From Promethearchaeota archaeon (GTDB lineage: Archaea; Asgardarchaeota; Lokiarchaeia; Sigyniarchaeales; SOKP01), in assembly GCA_048940765.1 (NCBI GenBank), contig JBHLOG010000003.1, forward strand, positions 456-64,455: a stretch of 64,000 nucleotides of DNA. The letters run 5' to 3'. The position numbers and the translations under genes were made by a program. The notes below the pieces were generated by a model. It did not search any database and had not been told where the DNA came from. It saw only the letters and a program-made list of their open reading frames with translations. This document shows, in pieces, positions 41,135 to 60,936 of the stretch. The first letter of the stretch is position 1, and each line of letters starts with the position of its first letter.

Positions 41135-41184
41135 TAGTATTAAAACTAAACAATTTTCAATAATTCTTTTACTTTATTTCCTAT

Positions 41185-41640
41185 TTATTCATCTTCAAAA
41201 TGTTTTACCGTAATAAACCAAAAATTCACTATTGAATTAACAATTTTATAAAATTGCTTCATTTCTAAAGGTTTAATTATATAACAATTAGCATGGAGAT
41301 TATAAGCTCTAATTAAATCATCTCGAGCATCAGACACAGTTAAAATGACTACTGGAATTCGTTTTAATTCTTCATCTTTCTTAATTTCTTCCAATACCTG
41401 AAAACCATTTCTTTTCGGCAAGTTTAAGTCCAAGAGGATCAAGTTTGGTCTATTGACATTGGAATATTTCCCTCGCTTTTTTAAAAATTCAATGATTTCA
41501 ATACCATCTCTTACTACGTCTAAACTTTGTACAATCTTGCTCTCTTGGAGAACTTCCTGAATTAAACGAATATCTGCGGCATTATCTTCTACCAGTAAAA
41601 TTCTTGCTTTTACTCTTTTATTTCCAACCATAATTTTCAA
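41185..41640 (-). CDS. Stand-alone response regulator (Rcp1-like REC)
   Basis: ILLVEDN, ILLDLNLP, VVILT, ANCYIIKP. Confidence 0.92.
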   Translation of the reverse strand: MKIMVGNKRVKARILLVEDNAADIRLIQEVLQESKIVQSLDVVRDGIEIIEFLKKRGKYSNVNRPNLILLDLNLPKRNGFQVLEEIKKDEELKRIPVVILTVSDARDDLIRAYNLHANCYIIKPLEMKQFYKIVNSIVNFWFITVKHFEDE

Positions 41641-41643
41641 TAA

Positions 41644-42702
41644 TTAATCTCTATTTTTTTCGGCAATAATTGTAAAATAAAAAGTTGATCCTTTTCCAAA
41701 TACTGAATCTACCCAGATTTTTCCACCATACCTTTGGACTATTTTTTTACATATTGGTAATCCTATCCCTGTACCTGGATATTCTTCTTTAGTGTGCAAT
41801 CTATAAAAAATATTAAAAAGTTTATCAAAAAATTTTGATTCAATTCCTATACCATTATCTTCAAATGAGAATAACCATTCATTATTGACCTTCTTTACTC
41901 CAATATGTATTTTAGGTGGTTCTTGCCTTCGGAATTTTATAGCATTACTAATTAAATTTTGAAATAATTGGATAAATTGAGTTTTGTCAACTTTTAGTAT
42001 TGGCATTTTGTCATGAGTTATAATTGCACCGCTTTCTTTAATTGATTCGTGGAGATTAAATAACGCTTCATTTAAAATCTTCTCAAGGTTTAATAATCTT
42101 GAAGGTTGGGCGTGTGTAGTTATTCTTGAATAGGATAATAGATCTTTGATAAGAGTATTCATTTTTTTTGCCCCATCTGTAATAAAGTGAATGAATTCTT
42201 TCCCATCCTTATCTAATTTATCTTGATATCTATCTTCTAGAAGTTGAGAAAAGCTTACAATTGCTCTTAAAGGTTCTTGTAAGTCATGTGAAGCTACATA
42301 CGCAAATTGTTGTAAATCCTCATTTGAACGCTTTAAATCTTCCATTATTTCATTGAATTCAATTTCTCTTTTTGAGACATGTTCAGAGAGGAATGAAACA
42401 ATTATACCCACTATTATTAAGGAGAATGCTCTTAAAAAGTTATTAATTAACTCTAAATTAAAGATACCATTTTCAGGAATGATATTAAAAATAATTAAAA
42501 TTACTGCTAAAAAGACAGATATAAATAAACCTTTTTTTTTCCACCATAAACAAGCTAGTATTGAAGGAAAATAAAAAAAGTGTGCTACCAATATAGATAT
42601 TCTGAGGATAATCTCGAAATAATATATTAAAAATAAGGAGATTATCAACAAAATTAAGATAATTAGCATTCTTATTTTTTCATCCTTAAATTTCAAGTTC
42701 AT
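41644..42702 (-). CDS. Membrane-bound sensor histidine kinase
   Basis: About four N-terminal TM segments; ASHDLQEPLR H-box, NLISNAIK, DNGIG, GTGIGL. Confidence 0.93.
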   Translation of the reverse strand: MNLKFKDEKIRMLIILILLIISLFLIYYFEIILRISILVAHFFYFPSILACLWWKKKGLFISVFLAVILIIFNIIPENGIFNLELINNFLRAFSLIIVGIIVSFLSEHVSKREIEFNEIMEDLKRSNEDLQQFAYVASHDLQEPLRAIVSFSQLLEDRYQDKLDKDGKEFIHFITDGAKKMNTLIKDLLSYSRITTHAQPSRLLNLEKILNEALFNLHESIKESGAIITHDKMPILKVDKTQFIQLFQNLISNAIKFRRQEPPKIHIGVKKVNNEWLFSFEDNGIGIESKFFDKLFNIFYRLHTKEEYPGTGIGLPICKKIVQRYGGKIWVDSVFGKGSTFYFTIIAEKNRD

Positions 42703-43059
42703 TTCAAATAGACCTCATATTATATTAGACAACTTTTATTTGGAATTTTTAAAAAGCAATAGGAGAATATCTTAGGATAAATTCTTTTTTAATAAGAATA
42801 TTATCCAATATTAGATAAATTTTACCGAACAAAAATATGATTATTTTTATTTGATAAAATGGAGATTTCAATTCATAATATTTAAAATATATGTAATTTG
42901 CTTTTTTCCCTTAAAAATTTGACAAAAAATTTTATCTATTTGAGCAATTAATAAAATAATTATAAATATTACAATGAATATTATTCAGATTAAGTATAAA
43001 GAATTGAAAAAAGGATTTATTTGAATGTAATTATAAAAATTATTTTATGGTGAATTGAT

Positions 43060-43953
43060 ATAGAAAAAAAAAGCCTTGATATCCTATTGATTGAAGATAA
43101 TAAAGCTGATGTTCGTCTTATTGAAGAATTATTAAGAACTTCTGAAGATTTCAAATTTAAATTAGAATCAAATCCTAGACTTTTTGAAAGTCTTAATCGT
43201 CTTGTAGCTAAAAAGTTTGATATTATCTTATTAGATTTAACTCTACCTGATAGTGATAGAGAATCTACTTTAGAAAGAGTTTTAAATTTTACCAGCACAA
43301 TTCCTATAATCATTCTAACTGGATTAGATGATAAGGATTTCGCTTTAAAATCTCTTCAGAAGGGTGCTCAGGATTATATTGTAAAGGATGATCTCAATGG
43401 ACCTAGTCTAATACGAGCAATTTTATATGCCATTGAACGACAAAAAATTGAAACTGAAAGAATAGTAGATAGACTCCCCAAGATACCATTTGATGAAAAA
43501 GATAAAGAAATTCTTAACTTTCTGCAGGAAAATTATAAAATTTCTTATAAAGATTTGAGTAAACAAGTGAATTTAGCCGCTAGTACGATTCATAATAGAG
43601 TACAAAATATGATCAAAGAGGGGATTATAAAAAAATTTGATACTTTTGTAGATCCATTTAAAGTGGGATATCAATCTATGGCTATTCTTGGTCTTTCAAT
43701 AGATCCTTTGAACTTAGATAATATAGCAAGAAAACTCTCCAAATATGATGAAATACAATTAGTTGTATCTTCTACCGGTGATTATAATTTAATATTGAAA
43801 ATTATTGCTAAAGATGAAAAAAATCTTTGGAGATTTATTAATGAAGAAATTAAAACCTTAGATGGAATACAATTACCAGTGAATGTTTCAAGCTTTATAG
43901 ATATTTTTAAAATGACTAATAGAATAAAATTTAAAACTATAAAAGAAGAATAA
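43060..43953 (+). CDS. REC-Lrp/AsnC fusion response regulator; probable ATA start
   Basis: (M)EKKSLDILLIEDN, LLDLTLPD, LTG, YIVK followed by an Lrp HTH and RAM domain; GGTGA 6 nt before ATA 43060. Confidence 0.88.
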   Translation: MEKKSLDILLIEDNKADVRLIEELLRTSEDFKFKLESNPRLFESLNRLVAKKFDIILLDLTLPDSDRESTLERVLNFTSTIPIIILTGLDDKDFALKSLQKGAQDYIVKDDLNGPSLIRAILYAIERQKIETERIVDRLPKIPFDEKDKEILNFLQENYKISYKDLSKQVNLAASTIHNRVQNMIKEGIIKKFDTFVDPFKVGYQSMAILGLSIDPLNLDNIARKLSKYDEIQLVVSSTGDYNLILKIIAKDEKNLWRFINEEIKTLDGIQLPVNVSSFIDIFKMTNRIKFKTIKEE

Positions 43954-44015
43954 AATATTTGTTTTATAGTTAATTTAATAGTTATTTGAATAAATGAGAA
44001 GATATCTAGTTCAAT

Positions 44016-45365
44016 TCAAGGAAAAATACCTCTTAATTCAATTGCCTTTGCCAATCTTGAAATAGCAATCATATATGAGGCTATTCGTAGCGTAGTCTTC
44101 TGTTTAATTGATAGATCATAAACATCCTCGAATGTATTAACAAGAATATTCTTTAATTCTTGATTAATTCTTTCTAATTTCCAAAAATAACTATGAATAT
44201 CTTGAATATACTCAAAGTACGAGACACATACCCCTCCTGCGTTAGCAAGTATATCAGGAACTATAATTATCCCCCTTTCATTCAAAATATCATCTGCTTC
44301 TGGAGAAGTTGGTCCATTTGCACCTTCTAACACAATTTTACACTTTATTTTATAAGCATTTGATTGCGTTATTTGGTTTTCAATTGCAGCCGGAATTAGA
44401 ATATCACAATCAAGTGTAAGTATATCTTCATTGTTAACAAATTCATAATCCTTATTTTGGAAATTCTTTAAATATTTACCCTTATCTCTCCAATCTAATA
44501 AATTTTTAATATTTAATCCTTTTCCGCAATGCAATCCACCACTAATGTCTGATACAGCAATTATTTTACAGCCTTTCTCGTATAAAATTTTAGCTATATT
44601 CCCCCCAACATTACCAAATCCTTGTACAACAATACATTGGGATTTTAAGTCTATTTTTATTTTGTTACATAAAGCTTCGAGAACGTAAAATAATCCCATT
44701 CCAGTTGCAGTTTCTCTTCCAACTGATCCTCCTATTTCTAAGGGTTTGCCTGTTACTACTCCGGGAACAGCTCTTCCCTTATTCATAGAATAAGTATCCA
44801 TTATCCAAGCCATTATCTGAGGATCTGTGTTAATATCTGGAGCAGGAATATCCATATCCGGACCTATAATATTTATAATTTCTGCAGTGTATCTCCGAGT
44901 TAACCTTTCTAATTCCCCTTTCGATAGTTTAGTGGGATCAACACATATTCCTCCCTTTGCTCCTCCAAGGGGTAGATTTAATAAGCTACACTTCCAAGTC
45001 ATCCAAGTGGCCAAAGCTTTAACTTCATCAAGATTAACATTTGGAGCAAATCTAATGCCTCCCTTTCCGGGACCGCGAACAGTTGAATGTTGTACCCTAT
45101 AACCCTCGAATATCTCAAGATTTCCATCATCCATCTTTATTGGAATTGTTACAATTAAGCATCTTTCAACCCTTTTAAGATAATTTCTTATATTTTTATT
45201 TAATCTCATTTTTTCAGCAACTATATCGATTTGCTTTTTAGCCATTTCAAATGGGTTTGTTTCCGTTAACAAATTTTCCTCAAGTATTTCATAAATTTCA
45301 TTTTCTACAGCATTTTCTAAATCTCTTGGATAAGCAAATTTTACCTGTTCTTCTTTTTCTAACAT
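44016..45365 (-). CDS. gdhA: Glu/Leu/Phe/Val dehydrogenase, glutamate dehydrogenase type
   Basis: GPGKGGIR, GGAKGG, DIPAPD, VQGFGNVG, EGANGP, PDILANAGGV. Confidence 0.93.
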   Translation of the reverse strand: MLEKEEQVKFAYPRDLENAVENEIYEILEENLLTETNPFEMAKKQIDIVAEKMRLNKNIRNYLKRVERCLIVTIPIKMDDGNLEIFEGYRVQHSTVRGPGKGGIRFAPNVNLDEVKALATWMTWKCSLLNLPLGGAKGGICVDPTKLSKGELERLTRRYTAEIINIIGPDMDIPAPDINTDPQIMAWIMDTYSMNKGRAVPGVVTGKPLEIGGSVGRETATGMGLFYVLEALCNKIKIDLKSQCIVVQGFGNVGGNIAKILYEKGCKIIAVSDISGGLHCGKGLNIKNLLDWRDKGKYLKNFQNKDYEFVNNEDILTLDCDILIPAAIENQITQSNAYKIKCKIVLEGANGPTSPEADDILNERGIIIVPDILANAGGVCVSYFEYIQDIHSYFWKLERINQELKNILVNTFEDVYDLSIKQKTTLRIASYMIAISRLAKAIELRGIFP

Positions 45366-45446
45366 ACTCGAATAATATTCAGTTTTGATTTTTTTCTATT
45401 TAATTAATTAGATTATATCTCTTCATTTAATATATGTCGTATAATG

Positions 45447-45533
45447 TTTATAAATTTGTCGAAAGAAGTATTATCATAAAGCCATAATAACGAAACAAAT
45501 TCGGTAAAAGGTAATTCAAGCGAATTTCATTCA
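45447..45533 (-). promoter_or_regulatory. gdhA promoter: TATA box plus three phased CGAA-N5-TTC sites
   Basis: TTTATAAA 45447-45454; sites start at 45460 (half-site), 45491 and 45521. Confidence 0.6.
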
Positions 45534-45572
45534 ATAAAACATTTTGATTTAAAAAATGAATAAGAATTAATT

Positions 45573-46877
45573 TTAGTGTGTAGCACACGAAATACAAGGA
45601 TCAAAAGCTCTAATTATCATTTGAATATTTTTTTTAACCAAATTATAATCACCTGTTTTTTCAAATAGTTCTTGAGCATAATTTGTAATCATACGGTTAA
45701 TAATAGGAATATTGAACTCTGTAGCAACAAAAAGTTTAACTCGATCAATAACATTACTTTTATTAAGGTGGTAGTGATGGAGTAATATCCCCCTTGGTGC
45801 TTCAATAAGACCTATTCCGTCAGATCCTTTAATTGAATCTAAGGATGGAAGTTTTTCTTTAAGATTTAAACAAGGATCATCTAAAATTTGTATCCCTTGA
45901 TAAGATTCGATATACATTTCTATTAAACGTATAAAATTCGTTAATAGTATATTATTTTTCCATTTTTTTTCAAAGGATTCAAAAGAAGTACTAATTTGAT
46001 CAATTCCATAGTTCTCAACAATATTAAAACGAGAAAAGGGACCAACAATTACATTCCTTTTATTTTCGAAATAAAAATCAATTCCACGTAAATCAATTTC
46101 TTTACCAAAGTAAGAAGAATATTTTTGTTTTTCAAATTCAATTACGTTTTTATTATTTTCTTTAAGTCTTAAAGAACCTACATATCTATCATAATTTCCA
46201 TTATTAGTTAATCCTAAAGATATATAATTTGGTATTTCAAATTCTCTTGGAGGAATCTGATCAGCAAATAATTCAATTACTTTTTCTATTATCCATTCTA
46301 AATTAACCAGTGATTTTTGTAAATTTCTTTTAGCCAATGTAATGTTTTTTTGTGAAGGAGAATAGATAATACCTCCTGGAATTGGTGAAAGCAAATGAAC
46401 AGATCTACCACCAAATAATTCATTTATTTCATTTCCAATTTTGATTAATTCATATAAATTGGTTGTTAATTGAGGATTATATTTTACTAATTCGTAAGGA
46501 GATAACAAATTTTGACTAATATTAAAAATTTTCAAGAGATCTGGTAAATTTTGGAAGAAAAAATTCATTGAATGAGATTTTATTAATTCTCCTATCATTA
46601 AAAGGCGTCTTAAAAGAACACTTTGATTTGAAACCTTAATGTCATAAATATCTTCTATTGCTTTACAGCTTGCAATTGCTTGAGATGCGTAACAAAGTCC
46701 ACATATTCGCGAAACTATTTTCGGAATATCTAGTAATTGCTTTCCTATTAAAAAATTTTCAAATCCTCGATATACATCAAATTCAAAATTCACTAATGAA
46801 ATTTCATCATTTTGAACTAAGATTTTTACTTCTCCATGACCCTCAACACGTTGACAAATGTCAACAACTTTCAACAT
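45573..46877 (-). CDS. [NiFe]-hydrogenase large subunit (group 3-like), ending at the L2 His
   Basis: RVEGHG, RICGLC (L1), EAPRG, DPCISCATH-stop (L2). Confidence 0.88.
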   Translation of the reverse strand: MLKVVDICQRVEGHGEVKILVQNDEISLVNFEFDVYRGFENFLIGKQLLDIPKIVSRICGLCYASQAIASCKAIEDIYDIKVSNQSVLLRRLLMIGELIKSHSMNFFFQNLPDLLKIFNISQNLLSPYELVKYNPQLTTNLYELIKIGNEINELFGGRSVHLLSPIPGGIIYSPSQKNITLAKRNLQKSLVNLEWIIEKVIELFADQIPPREFEIPNYISLGLTNNGNYDRYVGSLRLKENNKNVIEFEKQKYSSYFGKEIDLRGIDFYFENKRNVIVGPFSRFNIVENYGIDQISTSFESFEKKWKNNILLTNFIRLIEMYIESYQGIQILDDPCLNLKEKLPSLDSIKGSDGIGLIEAPRGILLHHYHLNKSNVIDRVKLFVATEFNIPIINRMITNYAQELFEKTGDYNLVKKNIQMIIRAFDPCISCATH

Positions 46878-46881
46878 TTTT

Positions 46882-47640
46882 TTACCCTCTAAATTTTGGT
46901 TTTGAAAATCGATAAAAAATACCTGTATAACTTTTAAGCTCCTTTGATAATTTTATCAAACTCAAATAATTAATAAGATTTGAAGTAAAGTCTTTTGATA
47001 CTGAGCCCATACATCCTTCACAAGGAAGTCCTATTGTTATACATTTATGTTCACATCCATCTCTAGTAATTGGACCCAAACACAAAATACCCTTTTTTAA
47101 AAAGCATTTAGGAACCTCTTCATCTAAGCTAATCTCTTCTGGATTTGGATTAATTTTAGATATATTAACTTGGCTATTAATTCCAAAATCTTCTCGAATT
47201 GGGCAAGTTGCACACATATTTTTTTCAGATAACGTAATCTCTTTATTCTCAACCAATTTAATAATACAATTTCCAAGAAGCTTTGAAGGAGGAGGACACC
47301 CTGGAATAATTCCATCAATTTCAACATAATTGGAGATTGGTAATGCTTTTTTTGTATTTGAAAGACTTAAAATTCCACCAAAACTAGCACAGGTTCCTAG
47401 CGCATATACCTTTTTTGTAACTTTTCTTATATTCTGAAGAATTGGGATTTGTGTTTCTTCAGATATACACCCTTCTATCAGAGCAATATCACAATCGTCA
47501 ATCTCATCTATATCTGAAATAAAGTTAAAATACGTTATCCTTGTTCTTTCTAAGAATTGGGGGAAAATATCTAAGGACATAAGAGTTGAGATACATCCAC
47601 TACATGAAGTTAAAGACATTATTATAAATCTACGCTTCAT
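46882..47640 (-). CDS. [NiFe]-hydrogenase small subunit (MvhG-like)
   Basis: SCSGC, EG, GTCASFGG, PGCPP, CATC, CF, CLGPIT..GC, PCEGC. Confidence 0.88.
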   Translation of the reverse strand: MKRRFIIMSLTSCSGCISTLMSLDIFPQFLERTRITYFNFISDIDEIDDCDIALIEGCISEETQIPILQNIRKVTKKVYALGTCASFGGILSLSNTKKALPISNYVEIDGIIPGCPPPSKLLGNCIIKLVENKEITLSEKNMCATCPIREDFGINSQVNISKINPNPEEISLDEEVPKCFLKKGILCLGPITRDGCEHKCITIGLPCEGCMGSVSKDFTSNLINYLSLIKLSKELKSYTGIFYRFSKPKFRG

Positions 47641-50179
47641 ATTTTACATCCTCTTTTAATTTATTAAAGAAACTATTAGAAATTTCAGCAAATTTTACAC
47701 CTTCTACAGCATTCATATGTTCAAGTAATATTCGATCTTTATATTTTGGTGTAATAATATCTTTTAATAATCTAATTTTATTTCCTATTTTTTCAATTCC
47801 ATCAATGTACCGACAAGCATCTTGTCTACAACCAACGATCATTACTCCATCAAAACCCAACTCAAATGATTTAATTATAAAATTAGTATCAATCCTTCCC
47901 GTACATGGAACTCGAATTATAAAAGTATTTGGATTATATGAAATTTTCTTAAGTCCGGCATCATCAGCAGCAGCATATCCACAAGAACTACAACAGAAGG
48001 CAATAATTTTTGGACTTGCTCTAAATTTTGAAAAAGCTTTAATTGTGGCCAATATTTTTTCAGATGTGTCGATATTTAAGTCTATTGCATTAGTAGGGCA
48101 GATACTAGCACATGTACCACATCCCTTGCATTTAAATTTATCTACACTTATTTTATCCGATTCTATTGTAATCGCATTATAAGGACAAATTTTAAGACAT
48201 AATCCACATAAACCACATTTATTTTCATTAATTTCAATTCCGCTAAACTCTGCGATTAGGTGATCCTTCGATAGTAATGAAATGATTTTTAAAGCACAAT
48301 TATTAGCCGTTGAAATTGTAGAATTATAATCCAATGGACCAAAAATTGTACCAACACCATAAATACCAGATGCCAACGTTTCTTCACTCATAAATCCGTT
48401 ATCATCCAAAGTAAAATCCATATATTTTCTTAGATTTTTTAAATCTTTATTAGGGATATATTTTAGATTTAAAATTATTAAATCACTTGGAAATTCGATA
48501 TTATCAGCAACAACATAATTTATATCTTTATTAGTTTCAATAGAAATTTTATTAGCATATAAAAATCTTGGATTAGTTGATCTTAATAAAATCTCATCCT
48601 TATTTTTCAGTCTACTTAAATCATAAAAAACATTAACTTCGCAATCAGGATTTCTTATTTTTATATCTTCAATATATTTTTGAGCTAAAATTTCCGAGTA
48701 ATGTGCCAGATATTTTGAAGGCCCTACTTCTTGAATAATAGAAATCGAACTTAAGGGTTTTTTATCTGATAATCTTAAGAGATTTCCTTCAGTAATTCCA
48801 TCAGAAGATAACATTCTTTCAAATTCAGCAGATGTTATTATATTTTTTTGGGGATTATAATGATAATCCTCTAAATCTTCGTATAAATCAGATCCAATCG
48901 CAATAACTTTTGCACCAACCTTAATCTCAATTTTTTCTTCTTTTTGAGTTAAATCTATAGCTTTATTCGCGCATGCACGTTCACAAATTCTACAGTTAAT
49001 ACATTTATTTATATCTCCTTTATCAATTATAGGAGCAAAAGGATAAGAATGTATAAAAGGGATATATATTATTTTTCGATTAGTTAAACCATATTCATAT
49101 TGATTTTGCTTTTGTATACTACAAACTTCAATACATTGTTTACACCCTGTGCATTTTTTCACGTCAACAAAACGAGGTTTTTTAATTAAACTAAGAGTAA
49201 AATTACCTACTTCTCCTGATACATTTTCAATCTCAGTATTAGTATAAATTTTTATATTTTTTTGGTTTGTTAATTCGCTTATTAATTCTGAAATAAAACA
49301 TATTGAACAATCACCCATTTGATGGATTCGATGCCATCTTGCTATTTTACCTCCCAATGTAGGTGATTTCTCAATAAGATAAACCTTAATCCCAGCACGA
49401 GCTAAGTTTAATGCGAGTGTAATACCAGCAATCCCACCACCTAAAATAGCACAACTCTTTTCTACTTCCACTCTTTTTACTTTTACTTTCTTTTGAATAT
49501 ATACGCGCTCAACTGCCGCTTCAATTAATAATTTAGCTTTTTCCAATGAAAGTAAAGGATCTATTTTATTCATTTTGGCTTGATGAACCCAACAACATTG
49601 TTCTCTAATATTTGCTATCTCAATATTTGCACGCTCAATAATATCTTCAAAGATTCGTTCAAAAAGAAGTTGATGCGTCTTTGGGGAACAAGCAGCTATA
49701 ACAATCTTATTTAAAAAATTATCTTTAACCCAATTAATAATTTTTTTAAAATTCTTTTCTTGACATAAATTATCAAAAACTTTTACTGAAACTACTTTTC
49801 TTAATTTATTTATATAATTTTCTAAAGCAGTAATATTAATTACACTTGAAACTTCTGTATTACAATTGCAAATAATTACTCCAATTCGGCTTATTTCGCT
49901 CCCCTTAGTTTCTAAATATTCATCAATATCTTCTCCGGATAAAATCCTTTTGTTCAGATTAATAATTTTTAACACACGTTTACCATCTTCCGTAAGAAAG
50001 TACGATTTTTTGTCTTTACCTATCAATGAACCTATCTTTTTAAGATGAAAATTTAGTTGTCCAGTTGTTTCTAAACCAAGTCTTTCCATTAAATCTGTAT
50101 AAGGGATATAACCCTCCTTTTCTAAAAGCAATAAGATTTTTCTCCTAAATGGATGAGATAAAATTGAATATATATCCAC
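47630..50179 (-). CDS. Fusion: ArsR-like winged helix, HdrA-like flavoprotein (degenerate core), MvhD
   Basis: LSHPFRRKILLLL...YTDLMERLG..TGQLNFHLKK...YFLTEDG; then IICNC, AACSP, NIREQC, GGGIAG, DCSIC, two ferredoxin pairs; C-terminal AFCCSSC, VPCTGR, GCRQDACRY. Confidence 0.85.
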   Translation of the reverse strand: MDIYSILSHPFRRKILLLLEKEGYIPYTDLMERLGLETTGQLNFHLKKIGSLIGKDKKSYFLTEDGKRVLKIINLNKRILSGEDIDEYLETKGSEISRIGVIICNCNTEVSSVINITALENYINKLRKVVSVKVFDNLCQEKNFKKIINWVKDNFLNKIVIAACSPKTHQLLFERIFEDIIERANIEIANIREQCCWVHQAKMNKIDPLLSLEKAKLLIEAAVERVYIQKKVKVKRVEVEKSCAILGGGIAGITLALNLARAGIKVYLIEKSPTLGGKIARWHRIHQMGDCSICFISELISELTNQKNIKIYTNTEIENVSGEVGNFTLSLIKKPRFVDVKKCTGCKQCIEVCSIQKQNQYEYGLTNRKIIYIPFIHSYPFAPIIDKGDINKCINCRICERACANKAIDLTQKEEKIEIKVGAKVIAIGSDLYEDLEDYHYNPQKNIITSAEFERMLSSDGITEGNLLRLSDKKPLSSISIIQEVGPSKYLAHYSEILAQKYIEDIKIRNPDCEVNVFYDLSRLKNKDEILLRSTNPRFLYANKISIETNKDINYVVADNIEFPSDLIILNLKYIPNKDLKNLRKYMDFTLDDNGFMSEETLASGIYGVGTIFGPLDYNSTISTANNCALKIISLLSKDHLIAEFSGIEINENKCGLCGLCLKICPYNAITIESDKISVDKFKCKGCGTCASICPTNAIDLNIDTSEKILATIKAFSKFRASPKIIAFCCSSCGYAAADDAGLKKISYNPNTFIIRVPCTGRIDTNFIIKSFELGFDGVMIVGCRQDACRYIDGIEKIGNKIRLLKDIITPKYKDRILLEHMNAVEGVKFAEISNSFFNKLKEDVKYEA

Positions 50180-50248
50180 TTATTTTCTCCCTCCTTTGTT
50201 TAAATTTCATGAAAATGATTAAAATTCTACTTAAATTAAATAAAATTA

Positions 50249-51403
50249 TTATTTATTTGCTATAGAAGTTCTTGATAATGAATTCCATGTTAGCATCTTA
50301 TCTCTCATATTTTTTTTTGTTCGCTTTAACTTCAATTGAGCAAATTGTATTAATTTTTCTTTTAAATCTTTTAAATTGGAGCTATCTAATTTAAATCTTT
50401 TAATTACACCTGCTCGCAGCGCTTTATTGATTATTTCCTCGCCTTTTTTAGTGCGTGTGATTACGGTTGTATATTTATCTTGTGAACCTAACCCTCCAAA
50501 TGAAATATCTGCGTAAATATTTGTAAAATCTTTACAAACACTACAAGCTGGACGTGTATAATCAGTTAATTTTTCAAATGGAATATGAATAATTTTTTGA
50601 GTATTTTTCTTACTTTTTATGTTGATAATTAAATTTTCCTTTATGTTTACCCTTTTAATATTTTCAAACTTAAGTTTAAAGTCTTTTTCGAATTTCTCTA
50701 TCCTTTTTTTGTCAAAAAAGAAATTCTCATAGCAAAATAATCCTAGACAAATCTCGATATTCTCAGATGGAATAATACCTAATTCTTGCATACATCTAAT
50801 TGTATAAATCTGACAAGGTGTGCCTACTAATGCTATTTTTTTAAATTTATAATGTCTTAAATTGGGTAATGAACTTGTATAAGTATGAAATTTTTGTACA
50901 ACTTCTAGTTGAGGAGTTATATCTAATTTGACACCCGAAGTATCAATCAAATCTTTTTTGCTTCTAGCTATTATAGATTCTCTATTAAAAGGTGATGTTG
51001 TTTTTGCCACAATTGCTCCTTCAATCAAATTTTTTTCTATTAAATAATTAATGATAGAGTTCACAACACCTCCATCTGTTCCATATTTTAAAAATTCATC
51101 ATCTGTAGCTTGGCAAGAGTAAATAGTATCTATAAATCCTAAAGGCATTTTTGTACTATCTGAAAAATTATAAGTTTTATTTAATTCCTCATCTAAAATA
51201 TGCGTCTGTGGGCATATAAAATAACAAATCCCACATTCAAGACATTTCTCCTTATTTAAGTATTCAGGAGGCGAATTAGGTTTTTTAAATCCAATTACTT
51301 CATGTTCAATTGAATTGCAAAAACTTACACAACCCCCACATTCTTGACAAATACCAGGCTTATGGACTTCTTCAATTAAATCTTTAAAAGTTTTTATATT
51401 CAT
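50249..51403 (-). CDS. Ferredoxin-FrhB family F420-binding subunit
   Basis: CQECGGC, CLECGICYFICP, DGGVV, VGTPCQ, GLFC, CSVCKDF...DISFG. Confidence 0.88.
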   Translation of the reverse strand: MNIKTFKDLIEEVHKPGICQECGGCVSFCNSIEHEVIGFKKPNSPPEYLNKEKCLECGICYFICPQTHILDEELNKTYNFSDSTKMPLGFIDTIYSCQATDDEFLKYGTDGGVVNSIINYLIEKNLIEGAIVAKTTSPFNRESIIARSKKDLIDTSGVKLDITPQLEVVQKFHTYTSSLPNLRHYKFKKIALVGTPCQIYTIRCMQELGIIPSENIEICLGLFCYENFFFDKKRIEKFEKDFKLKFENIKRVNIKENLIINIKSKKNTQKIIHIPFEKLTDYTRPACSVCKDFTNIYADISFGGLGSQDKYTTVITRTKKGEEIINKALRAGVIKRFKLDSSNLKDLKEKLIQFAQLKLKRTKKNMRDKMLTWNSLSRTSIANK

Positions 51404-51477
51404 TATAAAAAATCACTAAATTAATCTTATAATTATAAAATTTATTATGACTATTTTAATAATTTTTATGATCTCTA

Positions 51478-51495
51478 TGATAAATATAATTGTCA
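51478..51495. promoter_or_regulatory. 18-bp imperfect palindrome TGATAAATATAATTGTCA
   Basis: Matches the TGAYAAA-N4-WTTGTCA family; upstream of the frhB/wHTH-hdrA/hydrogenase operon. Confidence 0.5.
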
Positions 51496-51644
51496 AACTA
51501 TATAAATATGATCATTTTGTCAAAAGTAATAATCACAAAACCTAATCATGACTATCGATAAATTGCATAAAATAAAGTAAAAGGCAAGAATCATATTGGA
51601 ATCAGATCAAACCAAAGACCAAATTAATACATTTTATTTATTAA

Positions 51645-51698
51645 TGACAAATTCATTTGTCAAAATGATTATAATTATTCTTATCAGATTTTTTAAAT
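51645..51698 (+). promoter_or_regulatory. Conserved 54-bp promoter module (18-bp palindrome TGACAAATTCATTTGTCA plus TATA)
   Basis: 44/54 identical without gaps (manual count) to 60883-60936. Confidence 0.65.
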
Positions 51699-51843
51699 TT
51701 CTTCTAATTCATAATTTAATCGGGATAGAGTACAATAATATAATAACACTTACATTTATGTAAATTTTGTTTTTTTTCTCAAAACAAAATCTTGAAATAT
51801 TATTACAAAAAAATATTTGGTGATGATTGGAAGCGTGAATTAA

Positions 51844-53880
51844 ATGTCTGAAAAACAGACCATTGCTAGAATCGGAGTATATATTTGTAGATGAGGAGTT
51901 AATATAGGGGCTAGCATTGATTGTGATATTATTAGAGATTATGTTGAAGCACTCCCAAATGTCATAACTGCTAGAGTAAATGATTTTACTTGTAGTGATC
52001 CAGGCCAAAATATTATCAAAAACGATATTTTGGATTTAAATTTAAACCGAATAGTTGTCGCTGCTTGTACACCAAAAATTCATGAATCCACTTATCGAGC
52101 AGTTTTAGCTGAAGCAGGATTAAATCCATATTATTTTCAAATGGTAAATCTTCGTGAACAATGCTCGTTTACATCTTCAAGTAATAAAAGAGATACTACT
52201 AAAAAAGCTATAAGATTAGTACAAGCAGGTATCAATCGTGCTCGAGAATTAGAGATTGTTCCTCATAAAAAAATTTCAGTAGAGAAATCAGTATTAATAA
52301 TAGGTGCGGGAATTGCTGGAATGAATGCTGCATTAGATTTAGCCAATCAGGGAGTTAGAGTTTTCTTAATCGAAAAAGAGGCAACTATTGGGGGAAAAAT
52401 GGCACAATTAGATAGAATTTATCCTACAGACGATTGTGCTATATGAGTTCTGGCCCCTATAATGGTAAATGCTTCAAAACACCCAAATATAACCCTTCTT
52501 ACTTATAGTGAAATTATTGGATTTAGTGGTATTCCTGGTAAATATAATATTAAAATAAAGAAAAATCCACGTTATGTTAATGAAAAAAAGTGTACTGGAT
52601 GTGGATTATGTACCACAAAATGTCCTATAACAGTACCTAATGAATTCAATCGAGGTATTGGTGAACGTGGTGCAATCTATATACCGTTTCCTCAAGCTGT
52701 ACCTAAAATTGCGATAATTGATAAAAGTGTGTGTATAGAATGTAAAAATTGTCAAAGATTGTGTCAAGCAGAAGCAATTGATTTTGATCAGGTACCAGAA
52801 TTTATTGATATAAGCGTAGGTGCTGTAATAATTGCCACAGGATGGGATGAGTATCCAATTATGAAAAATAATGATTATAGATATGGAATTTATCCGGATG
52901 TAATTACTCAAATAGAATTAGAGCGAATGTTAAGTCCGGTTGGACCAACAGGAGGTCATGTATATAGAATTTCTGATGGAAAAATCCCAAAAACAGTAGC
53001 TATGATTCAATGTGTTGGTTCGAGATCTTTAAAAGGAAATCCTTATTGTTCAGGAGTATGCTGTAATGTTGCTCTTAAGAATGCTCAACTGTTAAAACAA
53101 GAATATCCTGATATTAATATTGCCATCTTTTATATAGATATGCGTACATGGGATAAAGGGAATGAAGAGTATTATAGAAAAGTGAGAGAAGCAGGAGTTA
53201 TGATGATTCGAGGAAAAGTTGGAGATATACGCGAAGATCCATTTACAAAAAACCTTAAAATTACAGCTTCTTCAACATTAACAAATGATATGATTACTAT
53301 GAATACAGATCTCGTTGTACTGTCAACAGGTATGGTCCCTTCTAAGAATACAATAAAATTAATTGAGACGCTAGGTTTAAGTAAAGATATTAATGGATTT
53401 TTATCTGAAGTTCATGGATGCCTAAAACCTCAAGAAACGAATAATATGGGCATTTATATTTGTGGGTGTGCTGCTGGACCAAAAAATATCCCATATTCGG
53501 TATCAACAGCATTAGCTGCAGCCAGTAAAACATCCACATTACTTTCAAAAGATGCAATCGTCCAAGAATTGATTATTGCTGAAATAAATGAAAATCTATG
53601 TATCGGCTGCCATAGATGTGAAAAACTATGTAATTATAAGGCTGTTATGGTAAATGGAGATAATATTGCAGAAATAGATGATTTGAAATGTAAAGGATGT
53701 GGTGTTTGTGTATCATCATGTCCTGCTAGAGCGATTGATCTTAAATATTATAGAGATAAACAAATTATTGAAGAGATAAAAGGCATTTGTAATACTGAAC
53801 TTGAATATAAAGAAGAATATATTGAATCTATTGAACTTGTTTGGAAAAAGATTGAAGCATTAGCTCCTTATCAAACTTAA
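51844..53880 (+). CDS. hdrA: Heterodisulfide reductase subunit A, selenoprotein with two Sec (U17, U201), 678 aa
   Basis: Single frame from ATG 51844 to TAA 53880 with TGA at 51892-51894 (IGVYICRUG) and 52444-52446 (PTDDCAIUVLAP); both positions are Cys in the neighbouring HdrA paralogues; SECIS-like hairpin follows. Confidence 0.9.
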
Positions 53881-53951
53881 TCTGAAAAGGAATGATCTTC
53901 TCAAAAAAATATTAGTTGAGAGGAGACTAACCCACCGTATGGGTTTTCAGA
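53881..53951 (+). ncRNA. SECIS element (eukaryote/Loki-type, AUGA...GA core) in the hdrA 3' UTR
   Basis: TCTGAAAA/TTTTCAGA basal helix; ATGA 53892-53895; TCTTCTCAA/TTGAGAGGA helix; A-rich loop; GA 53925-53926; side hairpin CCCA-CCGTA-TGGG. Confidence 0.85.
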
Positions 53952-54056
53952 ATAATGTAGAATAATAATTGATTTAAATTTATATCAGCAGTTCAAATTA
54001 ATTTGAAATGATTATAGGATTAGTTATTTTTTTTTGAAGTTAAAAATATTTGTTAA

Positions 54057-55211
54057 TTAAGGTTTTTTCTGCTTGGTTTTTAAAGAAATTAATTTATTAA
54101 ACCAATCTAATTTCTTATTTTTCCACTCAATCGTTTTGTTAAATGGAACAATAAATTGTTCAATTATTCCTTTTGAAAGCATATTGTTTATCACTTTCTC
54201 TCCTTTATCAGTTCTAATTAGGATCATAGAATATCCTTCTGGAGCCCCAGATGCCCCAATACTAATATCTGTAAACCTGCCTGTGAATTCATCACATTCA
54301 TGACAATTATTTCTAACTGCTGGATTTAGAGTTTTAATATCGATTTCAAATTCTTTATTATCTTTAGTTTGAATAAAGAAATTCTTTTTTATCCAAGTTT
54401 TCTTGATATTAGTAGGATCAACATTCGTTTCTTTTTCTAAAATGTCATATAATTGAGAATAAATAAAATTCTCATAACAGAAAAGACCTATAATATATTT
54501 AATAACATGAGCTGGTTTCACGAGCAAAAATTTCATTTTACTAACAGCTCTACATTGGCAAGGAGTTCCAATAAATGCAATTCTTATCTGGTCAATATCA
54601 AATATTTCTTTTTTCAAAAGAATCTCCTGAGGGATGCTGTATAAATTTTTTAAAGGAAATATTTGAGGAGAAATAGAATAACGTGTACCTGCCGATTTAA
54701 ATAAATCTTCTTTATCAAATATAATTTTTGGGACAGGTTCAAAGTTTTCGTTAAATTCTGAAACAATTGCTGCATCAATTTTATGTTTTTCAAATAAAAA
54801 TGTTAGTATTGCTGAAACAACACCTCCATCCTGTCCAACTTTTTCTAATGCTGAGTTTGTTGTTTTAGCAGCAAGAATTTTAGTAATATGCCCAATCTTA
54901 TCTTCAATACAATAAGTATCATTTAATTCATTTAATAATACATTAGTTTGAGGGCAAATATAATAACAAACACCACATTTAGTACAATTATCAACACTTT
55001 TTTCTGATTTAAACTCAGGAATGTATCCCTTCATCTCAATAACATCAAAACTTTGACTCTCGCAATATGCTATGCAAGCTCCACATGCACAACATTTATT
55101 AGTTTTAATTATTTCATTCTGAAGATCCTGAAAATTTTTTACGTTGTTTTGCTCAAGTTTCTGAAACCCTAATTCAGTCATTTTAATTCCTCTTTTTATT
55201 TCTTTTTCCAA
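54057..55211 (-). CDS. Ferredoxin-FrhB family F420-binding subunit
   Basis: CCACGAC, CTKCGVCYYICP, DGGVV, IGTPCQ, GLFC, CHECDEF...DISIG; the true start may be the second Met (MTELG). Confidence 0.88.
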   Translation of the reverse strand: MEKEIKRGIKMTELGFQKLEQNNVKNFQDLQNEIIKTNKCCACGACIAYCESQSFDVIEMKGYIPEFKSEKSVDNCTKCGVCYYICPQTNVLLNELNDTYCIEDKIGHITKILAAKTTNSALEKVGQDGGVVSAILTFLFEKHKIDAAIVSEFNENFEPVPKIIFDKEDLFKSAGTRYSISPQIFPLKNLYSIPQEILLKKEIFDIDQIRIAFIGTPCQCRAVSKMKFLLVKPAHVIKYIIGLFCYENFIYSQLYDILEKETNVDPTNIKKTWIKKNFFIQTKDNKEFEIDIKTLNPAVRNNCHECDEFTGRFTDISIGASGAPEGYSMILIRTDKGEKVINNMLSKGIIEQFIVPFNKTIEWKNKKLDWFNKLISLKTKQKKP

Positions 55212-55672
55212 TTATATTCTAATTCAAATACTCCAGATTTTTTAGAGATTTTTAATTCTCCCAATTCTATAATTGTGTCTGTAAAATCTTTAATTAATTC
55301 TGAAAATTGCTTCCCTTCACTTGCAGAGATGGAGTGTAATTGAAATCTATCGGCTTCAATTCCGATGTATTTTATTAATTTCTTTAAATGTTCCATTCTA
55401 ACTTGAGTGTATTCAAATCCCTTCATATAATGACAATCACCCATATGGCATCCAATAATTAATACACCATCTATTCCATTATTAAAAGCTCTTAAGATAA
55501 AGATAGGCTCAACCCTACTAGAGCACATAACCCTAATAATCCTAATATTTGGCGGATATTGAAACCTAGAAACACCTGCTAAATCTGCACCAGCATAACT
55601 GCACCAATTACAGCAAAAAACTAGAATATTCGGTTCAAATTCATTATTTCTTTTATTTTTAATATTTATCAA
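55196..55672 (-). CDS. mvhD: MvhD/VhuD [2Fe-2S] subunit (all-Cys form)
   Basis: FCCNWCSYAGADLAG, RVMCSSRV, GCHMGDCHY, ISASEG. Confidence 0.93.
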   Translation of the reverse strand: MINIKNKRNNEFEPNILVFCCNWCSYAGADLAGVSRFQYPPNIRIIRVMCSSRVEPIFILRAFNNGIDGVLIIGCHMGDCHYMKGFEYTQVRMEHLKKLIKYIGIEADRFQLHSISASEGKQFSELIKDFTDTIIELGELKISKKSGVFELEYNWKKK

Positions 55673-55689
55673 TAAATATCGCTCCCAAA

Positions 55690-58600
55690 TTAAATAATTT
55701 CATAATCTACTATATCTATATCAGTCAATAAATCAATCATTTTGCTAATTTGAAACTTACTAAAATGATTCTGATCAATAGCTCCGACTGAGCATTCTGC
55801 AACACAAGCTCCACAACCTTTACAAAGAGCTTTAATTATACGTGCTTTTCTTAAACTTACATCATATAAACCCATTTTTTTACGACTTTCAATCAATTCA
55901 ATCGCATTATACGGGCAAATCTCAATACATTTACCGCACCCGATACATTTTTCTTCATTTATATAAGAAGTTATACATTCAGTTTCTATTTCTCCTTTAG
56001 CCATTATTATTGCCGATCTCCCAGCAGCACCATATGCTTGAATAATACTTTCTCCAATCCATTTTGGCCAATGAGCTCCCCCACATAGAAAAATGCCATC
56101 TGTGGCAAAATCTATTGGTCTAAGTTTTGCATCAGCTTCTAAGAAAAATCCATCTTTATTTGTTGATACTTTTAACAATTTTGCTAATTTTTCAGTATCG
56201 TCAAAAGGAACGTTAGGAGTGGCTAATATTAATAAATCTGTATTATATTCAATATCTGTCTGAGCGCTTACATTTTTATATATAATATGGAAGTGATCTT
56301 TTTCATCACTGATTTTGATATCCTCAATTGATTGATACCTTTCATAAGTTGCATTTTTCCGAAGCCCTCGACATAGATTTTCAGCATTTAAATCTGTAAA
56401 TTGAAATTCTCTATATAAAATATGAATCTGCGCATTGGGATTGATATTTAATAATTTTTCAACGTTCTTTAATGCTACTCCACAACAAATATTTGAACAA
56501 TAGGTTTTCATATATTCTCCATCATTAAATCCATCTCTCCTTTGATCTACGCATAATATTATTGTAGCATCTTTAAATTTAGGAATCTCTCTATCGTTCA
56601 TTGCTGTAAATTCTGTTTGAGTAAGAACACGTTTGGGATATCTTTCAGATAAATCTTTCCACTTTATAGTTTTAATTTGCTTTGTTCCTGTAGCTACTAT
56701 TATTGTACCCACATTGATGGTTTGCTCTTTTGAATTTTCTTGAATATTTTTAACTTTAACCTCATAATTTCCAACATAACCTTGGACATCAACAATATCG
56801 GAGTTTAATAAAATATGAACATTAGATTTATTTTTTAAATCATTAATTTGTTGAAGAATTTCATTTTTCGTAATAGGTATATAGTATAAGTCAATAAATT
56901 CAAGTGCACTACCACCAAGAATCGCTCTCTTATCTATAAGATAAACTTCAAATCCTTGATTGGCTAAATTATGAGCAGCTGTAATCCCCGAGATTCCGCC
57001 ACCTATTATTAGAGATGATTGTTTAACTTTAACTTTAATGGTCTCTAATGGTTTTAAATTAATTACTTTTGCTAAATACATTCTAATTAAATCACATGCT
57101 TTTTTAGTTGCCTTTTTAGGTTCATTTTGATGGACCCAAGAATCTTGGTTTCTTATGTTTACTAGTTCAAATAAAAATGGATTTAATCCAACCTCCCTGA
57201 GAGTATTTTTAAAAAGTTGTTCATGTGTTCGAGGGGTACAAGATGCAACTATAAATCTATTAAGATTATATTTAATGATTAATTCTTTAATCAGTTCTTG
57301 TGAATCTGAACTGCATGAATACATATTTTCTTCGACGTGTACTACATAGGGCAATTTAGAAACATAATCTACAACTTCAGAAACATTAACAATCCCTCCG
57401 ATATTGATACCACACTGGCAAACTAAAATACCAACACGAGGTTCATCCTCTAACCTTACTGGTATTTCTGGGGGATATTCTACCTTTTTAATATTTTGAA
57501 ATCTGAAAGGATAAAATCTTTCACTAATTTTAGCTGCGCATGCAGAACCTTCTGCAACTGCCATTTGAATATCATTGGGTTTTTTAGAATAACCAGAAAC
57601 AAATACATTCTTTTTTTCAAGTAAGATGATATCTTCTTCACGAATATAACCTAAATCGTCACAATCTACATTTAAGTGTCTTAAAAGTTCATAGTAAGAA
57701 GGAGTTGGAGATAATGCACTTGCTAAAACGGCTATATCTACTTCAAAAGTTCCAACTTTTCCTTTATCAATATCTTCATAATATAATCTTAATTTTCCAT
57801 TATCTAAATTCTCTTTAATATATGAAACATGTCCATTTATATATTTAACATCATATTCATTCTTACTTTTTTCAATAAATTCATAAAAATTTTTACCTTT
57901 TGCTCTAATTTCCGTATTAAAAATATAGCATTCAATATTTGGATTGTGTTCCTTAACAACAATTGCTTCTTTAGCTGAATTCATACAACAAATTGCAGAA
58001 CAATATTTTTTACATTCTGGATGATGAAAATCTCGAGAACCAACGCACTGTATAAAACCAATCGATTTAGGATGTTTTTTATCGTCTAATCTTATGATTT
58101 GACCCCCAGTAGGTCCATTTGCAGAGAGTAGGCGTTCAAATTGCATGTTAGACAAAACATTGGGAGAGGAACCAGCAAAATTATTATATTTTTCTGGCAT
58201 TTCTTGGTTATTTCCTGTAGCAATAACAATTGCTCCAACATTTAACGTAATTTCTTCTGTTTTTTGTGTAAAATCTATGGCATCTGCAGTACAAACTTTA
58301 GCACAAAGGCCACATATTTTATAATTTAAATATAAACATTTCGAATCATCAATAAGATATATTGGAGGTACTGATGACGGAAAAGGAATGTAAATGGCTC
58401 CTCGAGTTTTTAAATGGGTATCAAATTCGCTAGGAATTCCCCTAACTGGACAAATATTCCCACAATCACCACATCCTTTACAAATTTCTTCTTTTATATA
58501 TCTTGGCTTTTTTATAACTGTAACTGTGTAATTCCCCGCATATCCAGTAATTTTTTTAACATACGAATATGTGAATAATTCTATATTTGGATCTCTATAC

Positions 58601-58812: not shown

Positions 58813-58860
58813 TTATTCAATAAATTTATAAATTTTATATCCCAATCTTGTTAATTTAAC

Positions 58861-60066: not shown

Positions 60067-60073
60067 GTTTATT

Positions 60074-60259
60074 TCATCGATAGTGATGTATTGAATATTG
60101 ATTCTCGATTATTAACTCAAAAAATCCACATTTAGAACATTTATACCCACTAGGCCCCTTATGTCTATAAATATAATCGTTTTCTTCTATACTGAATCCA
60201 CAAATAGGACAAAACTCTTTTTCCTTCTTTTGTTCAATCAACTTTTTATTTTCCTCCAA
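60074..60259 (-). CDS. Small zinc-ribbon protein
   Basis: CPICG...CSKCG in 61 aa, directly upstream of the hdrD-like gene. Confidence 0.6.
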   Translation of the reverse strand: MEENKKLIEQKKEKEFCPICGFSIEENDYIYRHKGPSGYKCSKCGFFELIIENQYSIHHYR

Positions 60260-60882: not shown

Positions 60883-60936
60883 TGATAAATTTTATTGTCA
60901 AATCGACTAAAATTATTCTTATCAAATTATTTAAAT
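60883..60936 (+). promoter_or_regulatory. Conserved 54-bp promoter module (copy 2)
   Basis: TGATAAATTTTATTGTCA...AATTATTCTTATCA..TTTAAAT; near-copy of 51645-51698. Confidence 0.65.

Follow-up and report, generated by a model that had tools for sequence, protein, structure and literature searches.

We analysed a 64,000-nucleotide (nt) stretch of a Promethearchaeota genome (class Lokiarchaeia; contig JBHLOG010000003.1, positions 456 to 64,455), hereafter the window, in which a [NiFe]-hydrogenase operon includes a gene for a winged helix-turn-helix (wHTH) domain of the ArsR type joined, in a single open reading frame (ORF), to an HdrA body and an MvhD domain (Table 1). In the window, the operon runs from an FrhB-like gene through the fused gene to the genes for the small and large hydrogenase subunits. 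As stated in the initial annotation, the fused gene follows frhB and overlaps the small-subunit gene; the overlap suggests that the fused protein is produced stoichiometrically with the hydrogenase subunits. The GTG start lies 8 nt after AGGAGGGAG, downstream of an in-frame TAA, and opens 849 codons. The operon is accompanied by palindromic sites that recur at related loci over deep divergence and that, as argued below, might be read by the fused domain.

Domains and cofactor sites of the fused protein

In Pfam, DUF7347 (PF24038) matches residues 2-73 (E 4.4e-10, 40.1 bits against a cut-off of 27.6), together with a weak match to HTH_24 in the same domain, and the body yields the flavin adenine dinucleotide (FAD) Rossmann motif, two ferredoxin domains, and FlpD/MvhD at residues 725-843. 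The NCBIfam model of HdrA2, an HdrA-MvhD fusion (NF040770), covers residues 98-843 with profile positions 1-770 of 777, at a score of 583.7 bits, under the curated cut-off of 1100. When the single sequence was compared with the PDB, solved HdrA chains aligned only from residue 95 and MvhD chains to residues 722-842, and no solved structure matched residues 1-94; a profile of 34 N-terminal domains returned 1y0u_A, a putative ArsR repressor, as the best solved match (E 9e-4), followed weakly by MntR and PagR. The relatives of the domain are overwhelmingly small archaeal ArsR-type regulators carrying HTH_5, HTH_20, and DUF7347, and the Atlas leads for it score 0.83-0.86. The initial description of about 80 N-terminal residues as an ArsR-like winged helix in frame with HdrA and MvhD is thus borne out by the concordant PF24038, 1y0u_A, and HdrA2 matches.

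Residues 1-80 are basic (15 Lys and Arg against 9 Asp and Glu, net charge +6), and T39, G40, Q41, L42, N43, F44, and H45, within the presumed recognition helix TGQLNFHLKK, are invariant across the close family. Among 62 loci, picked by patterns spread across the whole protein, the mean pairwise identity of the wHTH domain (0.81) equals that of the FAD part (0.81), with 0.69-0.76 in the other domains and the lowest value, 0.49, in the region of the cluster HA4 discussed below. Conservation at this level indicates that the wHTH domain is under strong purifying selection.

Cofactor sites were read from the alignment to HdrA 8rvu_a and from an alignment of 117 full-length family members (at least 800 amino acids (aa); 117 of 121 collected proteins, the query included), relatives that were collected by N-terminal similarity. 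The GGGIAG motif for FAD occupies residues 247-252, with G247, G248, G249, I250, and G252 invariant in 40 sequences. The N-terminal cluster ligands C104, C106, C139, and C164 and the DCSIC pair C291/C294 are conserved in 100% of the 117 sequences, both 2x[4Fe-4S] ferredoxin domains are intact, with eight inserted and eight C-terminal Cys conserved in 99-100%, and the MvhD Cys C730/733/759/784/789 are kept. Thus, the retention of the FAD motif, N-terminal cluster, ferredoxins, and MvhD ligands first seen in this one protein extends to the family, its Cys being 99-100% conserved in the 117 relatives.

The central motif is different. The fused protein has IIQEVGPSKYLAHYSE at this place, and CVGSRD...YCSRVCC of 8rvu_a aligns with EVGPS...YLAHYSE, so that all four Cys are replaced; the motif is intact in both neighbouring HdrAs, IQCVGSRSLKGNPYCSGVCC and CVGSRDFHHPECKKYCSAICC. 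The erosion reported initially is therefore not a peculiarity of this gene: neither half of the motif, C.GSR or CS..CC, is present in any of the 117 full-length relatives. The lost CxGSRD...CSxxCC motif is, judging by its position, probably that of the thioredoxin reductase (TrxR)-domain [4Fe-4S] cluster HA4. In the parts of the source drawn on here, HA4 is described as the carrier of the high-potential electron from the flavin toward HdrB, HA3 as the low-potential shuttle cluster, whose N-terminal domain takes up alternative conformations within Mvh-Hdr complexes, and the Cys pair as intermediate in position between MvhD cluster and flavin (PMC13580544). The TrxR-domain cluster of class II benzoyl-CoA reductase (BCRII) is likewise described, in the portion of the preprint used, as taking the high-potential electron (bioRxiv 10.64898/2026.04.10.717634). 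Judged by these ligands, the exit toward HdrBC is gone in this clade and the entry and the low-potential branch are intact.

The large subunit of the hydrogenase is closest among solved chains to 7t2r_D, a NiFe hydrogenase large subunit (1.3e-56), and to MvhA 5odc_F (1.3e-51), and the best families and structures overall are Vhu/Mvh, sulfhydrogenase, and the bifurcating NiFe enzyme. With its RxCGxC and DPCxxCxxH motifs, its iron-sulfur small subunit, and an MvhD fused to HdrA, the enzyme has the attributes of the Mvh type (group 3c-like); affiliation with group 2b was not found, and the module has no conserved kinase. The operon lacks hdrBC; an HdrCB-like gene is present in the neighbouring cluster, and such a gene lies within the flanks of only 8 of 84 loci. 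FrhB was considered as a fixed operon member and rejected, being found in about 22 of 75 loci. No known RNA family was found in positions 44000-64000.

Spread and age of the fusion

A search with residues 1-100 returned 161 proteins at E<=0.01 among 397 candidates of similar length, and among the 120 matches listed nearly all are 839-858 aa long with DUF7347, HdrA, and FlpD domains. With one genome per species, we collected 75 loci with the fused gene, mostly from Promethearchaeota metagenome-assembled genomes (MAGs), one from a Helarchaeota MAG, and two from closed chromosomes. In 66 of the 75, mvhG is directly next, and the other 9 end at the gene or within 200 nt of it, at the contig edge. 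Across the phylum, 377 of 400 genomes have an HdrA-like match; full-length matches that include the wHTH domain are distributed over at least eight families, with identities from 95% down to 37%, and matches that begin near residue 95 are plain HdrA-MvhD paralogues. Fused forms at 36-57% identity extend into several further families, and even in the distant fused loci (36-65% identity), mvhG-mvhA comes next in 9 of 9. The initial annotation had called for a check of synteny and architecture: with 117 full-length relatives and 75 loci, the fusion is conserved in Asgard archaea and is not unique to this contig.

A tree built without the wHTH columns, from the window, every third close locus (20 of 61), 7 distant fused forms, and 10 selected plain paralogues (locus L085 was left out), places the 29 fused rows on one side of a branch and the 10 plain HdrA-MvhD paralogues on the other, with an SH-aLRT value of 100; it is a quick search in which long branches were flagged. 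No free-standing close paralogue of the wHTH domain was found, the 33 shorter matches being contig-end fragments or distant proteins. Taken together, the sequences show a single old origin of the fusion, and the hydrogenase operon, the wHTH fusion, and the operator described below are inherited as one module.

The order of events can be read from the same tree. The HA4 Cys are present in 6 of the 9 distant fused loci and in three proteins of the representative library, Lokiarchaeia among them; the HA4-bearing lineages branch first, and a single HA4 loss is not rejected (p-AU 0.509, approximately unbiased test). Because HA4-bearing fused forms exist and branch earlier, the fusion predates the loss of the cluster, and an order of events in which cluster erosion created a sensor is ruled out. 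The initial annotation had taken the erosion as the mark of a subunit recast as a sensor, a view that does not hold given these early-branching forms and the strong constraint on the other cofactor sites and on the [NiFe] motifs. The HA4 loss reads instead as a later rewiring of the enzyme, not as the origin of a DNA-binding role, and the existence of HA4-bearing distant forms means that the fused protein is probably still an enzyme.

In databases, the domain is named DUF7347, fragments of the gene are called "ArsR family transcriptional regulator, partial" and whole genes "hydrogenase iron-sulfur subunit"; recognition of the fusion corrects the annotation of both.

Palindromic sites at the locus and across genomes

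The 18-bp pattern TGAYAAA-N4-WTTGTCA has three exact sites in the window (O1 to O3, Table 1), all in promoter regions of the hdr/hydrogenase clusters; the shuffle expectation for the window is 0.01, for a pattern that was itself derived from these three sites. Among related loci, 42 of 62 contain at least one TGAYA-N8-TRTCA in the 400 bp that precede the first gene of the operon, compared with a mean of 0.27 and a maximum of 2 loci in 200 shuffles, so that the palindromes pointed out initially are real and conserved at the operon. These upstream regions hold 59 sites in 24.8 kb, and the remainder of the loci holds 20 in 747 kb. Among 83 sites of this type in 75 loci, 71 lie upstream of frhB, the fused gene, or a gene encoding a domain that we refer to as N-dom (33 upstream of frhB, 14 upstream of the fused gene, 19 between the operon and the divergent N-dom gene, and 5 upstream of the N-dom gene), with the remaining 12 elsewhere and none inside mapped genes. 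The 14 aligned frhB promoters have the TATA box ATTTATATA, then, 4 nt downstream, the proximal palindrome, and finally a GGTGAT ribosome-binding site ahead of the frhB ATG; the palindrome fills the space between the TATA box and the expected transcription start. The interval between an archaeal TATA box and the transcription start is where repressors sit, and the palindrome, just downstream of the TATA box, is therefore in a repressor position. From its recurrence over such divergence, TGACAA-N6-TTGTCA appears to be a conserved operator tied to the operon at great evolutionary depth.

Other words recur near these sites. In the frhB promoter (51400-51530), conserved GATCAT words flank the TATA-operator block, and a third word, AGTCAT, stands further along; another factor may bind there. 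A palindrome of a different type, TGATATAAAT-N-ATATCA, is shared by five loci, in which it separates the 3' end of the second FrhB-like gene from that of the selenocysteine (Sec)-hdrA gene described below.

The third window site, O3, lies upstream of a cluster of two paralogous N-dom ORFs and a gene for an MtdA-like methylene-tetrahydromethanopterin (H4MPT) dehydrogenase. In four distant loci, a palindrome is found about 100 nt upstream of a gene that follows mvhA and encodes a 565-aa protein, in which an N-terminal N-dom is joined to an MtdA-like dehydrogenase with Mpt_N and Rossmann domains; the ORFs that are separate in the window are fused there. An Mpt_N gene adjoins the fused-gene operon in 7 of 9 distant loci; in many close ones, the N-dom/MtdA-like operon and the fused gene point away from each other, and the palindromes lie in the interval between them. 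On the strength of these sites, the MtdA-like cluster is the second member of the predicted regulon. N-dom is confined to Promethearchaeota in the Atlas, where TraB/GumN is a lead of low score only (0.81). In several loci, the MtdA-like gene is followed by a gene for a CDC48-like AAA ATPase, directly behind which a further copy of the palindrome occurs; the genes beyond that copy differ from locus to locus.

In whole genomes, the operator is almost private to the locus. The strict form TGACAA-N6-TTGTCA has a single site in genome G122, where it precedes the fused gene by 97 nt, a single site in G103, directly behind mvhA, and two sites in G374, of which one is at the locus and the other inside ORFs, so that 3 of 4 sites in these genomes are at the fused-gene locus; none is present in G307 or in G117, and the reversed control gave none. 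With the degenerate pattern, ten further genomes yielded 20 sites versus 6 control sites; 8 of these genomes, with 1-3 sites each, have one no more than about 100 nt from an end of the operon. In the two closed genomes with the fused gene, the locus holds 2 of 3 sites (G188) and 3 of 4 (G189), and the three promoter regions concerned are those also occupied in the window. In the window's own genome there are 9 sites versus about 5.7 expected, three of them at these promoters; a palindrome at position 77 of contig C6 is inside an ORF and was set aside. A genome-wide repeat or the site of a global regulator was considered and rejected, given a count near expectation in the own genome and 0-4 sites in the others.

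Genomes that lack the fused gene have a different complement. By the queries used, three closed sister-family genomes lack both the fused gene and the MtdA-like gene; they show only scattered TGATAA...TTATCA matches. In the complete genome G117, also without the fused gene, an MtdA-like gene was not found with the query used, and the DUF7347 matches are a 772-aa NrdD-like fusion and two small frames. This is a second fusion of an enzyme with the domain, in which DUF7347 forms the N-terminal part of a long protein of the anaerobic ribonucleotide reductase family (NrdD-like), and such a frame is encoded in the window's own genome as well.

Beyond the hydrogenase operon, the window contains further hdr genes. 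The forward-strand gene at 51844-53880 encodes a canonical 678-aa HdrA that has no MvhD and retains HA4. Two Cys positions are specified by in-frame TGA codons, namely U17, within the CxC motif of the N-terminal cluster, and U201, in place of the second Cys of the DCxxC pair, as in a selenoprotein; HdrA is described as a known, widespread Asgard selenoprotein family (PMC11227280). A second hdr operon (54057-60259, reverse strand) comprises a 61-aa ORF and the four genes listed in Table 1, and its gene order recurs in a closed related genome.

Table 1. Genes, protein segments, and candidate sites at the fused-gene locus and at related loci
Feature	Position	Strand	Remarks
wHTH-HdrA-MvhD gene	47630..50179	-	849 aa; GTG start; strong Shine-Dalgarno
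Residues 1-80, ArsR-type wHTH (DUF7347)	49940..50179	-	isoelectric point (pI) 9.74
Residues 81-97, acidic linker	49889..49939	-	17 residues; pI 4.05
Residues 98-716, HdrA body	48032..49888	-	N-terminal 4-Cys cluster domain, FAD Rossmann fold, DCSIC pair, inserted and C-terminal ferredoxin domains
Residues 477-500, site of lost TrxR-domain [4Fe-4S] cluster HA4	48680..48751	-	all four Cys replaced
Residues 717-849, MvhD/FlpD domain	47633..48031	-	five invariant Cys
[NiFe]-hydrogenase small subunit, MvhG/VhuG-like	46882..47640	-	15 Cys; 11-nt overlap with end of fused gene
[NiFe]-hydrogenase large subunit	45573..46877	-	RICGLC at 57; DPCISCATH at 426-434, the last residues
FrhB-like flavo-iron-sulfur protein	50249..51403	-	first operon gene here; 69 nt upstream of fused gene
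Putative operator O1, TGATAAATATAATTGTCA	51478..51495		75-92 nt upstream of frhB ATG, directly downstream of TATA box
TATA box ATTTATATA of frhB-hdrA-mvhGA promoter	51499..51507	-	invariant
Putative operator O2, TGACAAATTCATTTGTCA	51645..51662		perfect palindrome; divergent region, frhB / Sec-hdrA gene
Putative operator O3, TGATAAATTTTATTGTCA	60883..60900		186 nt upstream of N-dom/MtdA-like cluster, divergent from second hdr operon
N-dom ORF 1	61069-61686	+	no Pfam family; E 2e-11 to part of distant 565-aa protein
N-dom ORF 2	61712-62440	+	paralogue of ORF 1; E 3e-23 to part of distant 565-aa protein
MtdA-like methylene-H4MPT dehydrogenase	62483-63469	+	E 1e-60 to part of distant 565-aa protein
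Second hdr operon: second FrhB-like gene	54057-55211	-	
Second hdr operon: free MvhD	55196-55672	-	
Second hdr operon: double-length HdrA	55690-58812	-	1040 aa
Second hdr operon: HdrC-HdrB-like fusion	58861-60066	-	Fer4 and 2 CCG domains
DUF7347-NrdD-like frame	L002 (own genome, contig C75) 1462-3225; L090 (G117)		670 aa (L002); 772 aa (L090)
CDC48-linked palindrome	about position 680-935		loci L024, L030, L035, L037, L038, L048, L050, L057, L063
TGATATAAAT-N-ATATCA palindrome	L009:2209, L014:177, L018:3392, L051:1210, L054:3392		

A candidate trigger enzyme and its known counterparts

We propose, with a probability of roughly one half, that the fused protein is a bifunctional "trigger enzyme" akin to PutA, which represses its own regulon. 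As an enzyme, the HdrA-MvhD body would be the flavin/iron-sulfur electron-transfer subunit of a soluble Mvh-type [NiFe]-hydrogenase, in a complex of wHTH-HdrA-MvhD with MvhG and MvhA, here plus FrhB. As a regulator, two N-terminal winged helices, paired via the HdrA dimer, would bind TGACAA-N6-TTGTCA at the protein's own promoter and at the N-dom/MtdA-like promoter, repressing both, and switching could involve, for example, movement of the HA3-bearing N-terminal domain to which the wHTH domain is attached. Both marks of a trigger enzyme are found at the locus, namely, an operator next to the TATA box of the own operon and a DNA-binding-type domain fused to a catalytic body, the fused domain being the presumed binder. 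Regulators that have just one to three sites in a genome usually have their gene next to the target, and the flanks of the distant loci share no further helix-turn-helix gene. Because so few sites per genome imply a local regulator and the fused wHTH is the only conserved DNA-binding domain there, we infer that it is the binder; with conserved operators tied to the operon, DNA binding by the fused domain is the most economical reading, and one we consider rather more probable than its negation. If the domain does bind, a response to the redox or assembly state of the complex is, by analogy, again the somewhat better bet. A bolder version, which we offer only tentatively, makes the hydrogenase complex itself the transcription factor: the winged helices on the mobile HA3 domains would clamp the operator in one redox state only, so that H2 partial pressure or the ferredoxin redox state would be read directly, with no messenger, to repress or release the hydrogenase operon and a dehydrogenase of the H4MPT branch, in a module inherited across Asgard archaea.

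Apart from the conserved module, the window holds a regulatory cluster at 40541-43953, which encodes an Lrp/AsnC regulator, a receiver-only response regulator, a histidine kinase, and a receiver-Lrp/AsnC fusion; it is 4-9 kb away, beside a glutamate dehydrogenase gene (44016-45365), and outside the module.

Several observations weigh against the trigger-enzyme proposal. The exact site is missing in 20 of the 62 close loci, where one-mismatch versions occupy the same place, and genomes G100, G101, and G307 have no site at the locus. The half-site is the same where the helix differs (TGQLNFHLKK versus TGLFNYHLKK and TGLLNYHLKK), that is, helix and operator do not co-vary. A standalone 117-aa DUF7347 protein with a similar LNYHLK helix is encoded in the same genome, and winged helices serve as protein-contact modules, too. 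No genome with the target genes and without the fused gene was found, G117 and the three closed sister-family genomes lacking both by the queries used, a pattern with which an unlinked regulator would also agree. DNA binding by the wHTH domain would fit its sequence and the position of the sites, and the redox switch is proposed by analogy.

Some of these points would fit the main alternative, which we regard as less probable, in which the wHTH domain is a structural module that docks a partner, FrhB or the N-dom/MtdA-like dehydrogenase, or stabilises assembly, and the palindromes are bound by a regulator encoded elsewhere. Such a role has a precedent in the wHTH motif of BamF, which, in the part of the preprint used, forms a protein interface (bioRxiv 10.64898/2026.04.10.717634). 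The N-dom/MtdA-like genes, which adjoin the fused gene in 7 of 9 distant and many close loci, are placed as expected of a physical partner, high conservation suits an interface as well as a DNA reader, and both the missing co-variation and the other small DUF7347 protein are in line with docking. However, the domain is basic, its relatives are overwhelmingly regulators, and an operator found almost exclusively at one locus, where the fused gene is the sole conserved DNA-binding gene, is typical of a locally encoded regulator.

Much less probable is a pure H2/redox-sensing head, with the protein no longer an enzyme in this clade and the hydrogenase a sensor rather than a catalyst. It would account for the complete loss of the HA4 Cys among the full-length relatives, for the lack of hdrBC in the operon, and for the end of the large subunit, which in 61 of 70 orthologues (loci L005-L088) stops exactly at DPCxxCxx[HR], without a C-terminal extension. 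Such an ending is typical of sensory hydrogenases, including the H2-sensing regulatory enzymes, and of some group 4 [NiFe]-hydrogenases, and is unexpected for Mvh. Yet conservation is 99-100% at the remaining cluster ligands, the FAD motif, the Cys pair, and the [NiFe] motifs, earlier-branching lineages have this fusion with an unaltered HA4, the nearest relatives of the hydrogenase are catalytic enzymes of the Mvh type and bifurcating enzymes, and the gene overlap suggests stoichiometric co-production with its subunits. Finally, an assembly or gene-calling artefact, or a fusion private to the contig, is rejected as virtually impossible, the frame being continuous with its own ribosome-binding site and the same architecture, at 843-858 aa, recurring on many independent contigs from several sources, closed chromosomes included.

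Hydrogen metabolism is central to ideas on Asgard syntrophy and on the origin of the eukaryotic cell, and almost nothing is known of its regulation there. The trigger-enzyme proposal offers a testable module, with a defined domain, an 18-bp operator at a set promoter position, a clear phyletic pattern, and a small regulon that links an Mvh-type hydrogenase with a methylene-H4MPT dehydrogenase-like gene. Should the fused domain prove to bind the operator, the protein would be the first case of a hydrogenase or HdrA-type flavoprotein that doubles as a DNA-binding regulator, and PutA would have a counterpart in archaea; otherwise, the domain would represent a new docking interface in a hydrogenase complex specific to Asgard archaea, with the operator pointing to another, dedicated regulator.

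Among known systems, PutA, in which flavin reduction releases the protein from DNA, is the closest in logic. Like the fused protein, PutA of Proteobacteria is a flavoenzyme with an N-terminal DNA-binding domain and is described, in the part of the source used, as an autogenous repressor of its own regulon (PMC5293562), although it is a bacterial proline/pyrroline-5-carboxylate (P5C) dehydrogenase with a ribbon-helix-helix domain and a switch via membrane binding. RbkR, from what the cited source gives in the sections used, is an archaeal enzyme with a fused wHTH domain that controls genes of its own pathway (PMC5397151), but it is a small kinase that senses a metabolite, without redox cofactors and not in a multi-subunit complex. 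HdrA2 (NF040770) and the HdrA of MvhADG-HdrABC share the domain order and cofactor sites from residue 98 and the link to MvhG/MvhA, whereas they lack the N-terminal wHTH domain, keep HA4, and work with HdrBC. In the group 2b systems, the H2-sensing hydrogenases HoxBC/HupUV signal via a separate histidine kinase and response regulator, HoxJ-HoxA. These regulatory [NiFe]-hydrogenases resemble the present case in coupling a hydrogenase to transcription and in a large subunit without C-terminal extension; by contrast, the enzyme here is Mvh-like and has the DNA-binding-type domain on its own subunit.

SurR is a stand-alone ArsR-type regulator of hydrogenase operons. The ArsR-type wHTH regulator sHdrR controls hdr-like operons, according to the portion of the report relied on (PMC12423496); both sHdrR and SurR differ from the fused protein in being separate small proteins that sense via their own Cys and are not fused to an enzyme. 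BamF of BCRII, an MvhD-type adaptor beside an HdrA-type flavoprotein, contains a wHTH motif, which, in the text of the preprint drawn on here, contacts BamI, a protein-protein contact with which no operator is associated (bioRxiv 10.64898/2026.04.10.717634). The three-gene cluster of Helarchaeota reported by Seitz et al. in 2019 was put forward as possibly encoding an energy-transferring complex linked to the membrane, and a Hel_GB_A contig is among our loci (L055); the main text of that paper does not contain the word "helix", so that the wHTH domain is not discussed there (PMC6478937). In the literature on HdrA/MvhD, Asgard hydrogenases, and winged helices, we found no published description of the fusion, the operator, or the MtdA-like link, nor any paper naming DUF7347. 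Thus, fusions of enzymes with regulators and hydrogenases that sense H2 are both known, but a hydrogenase or HdrA subunit that itself carries a DNA-binding domain would be new.

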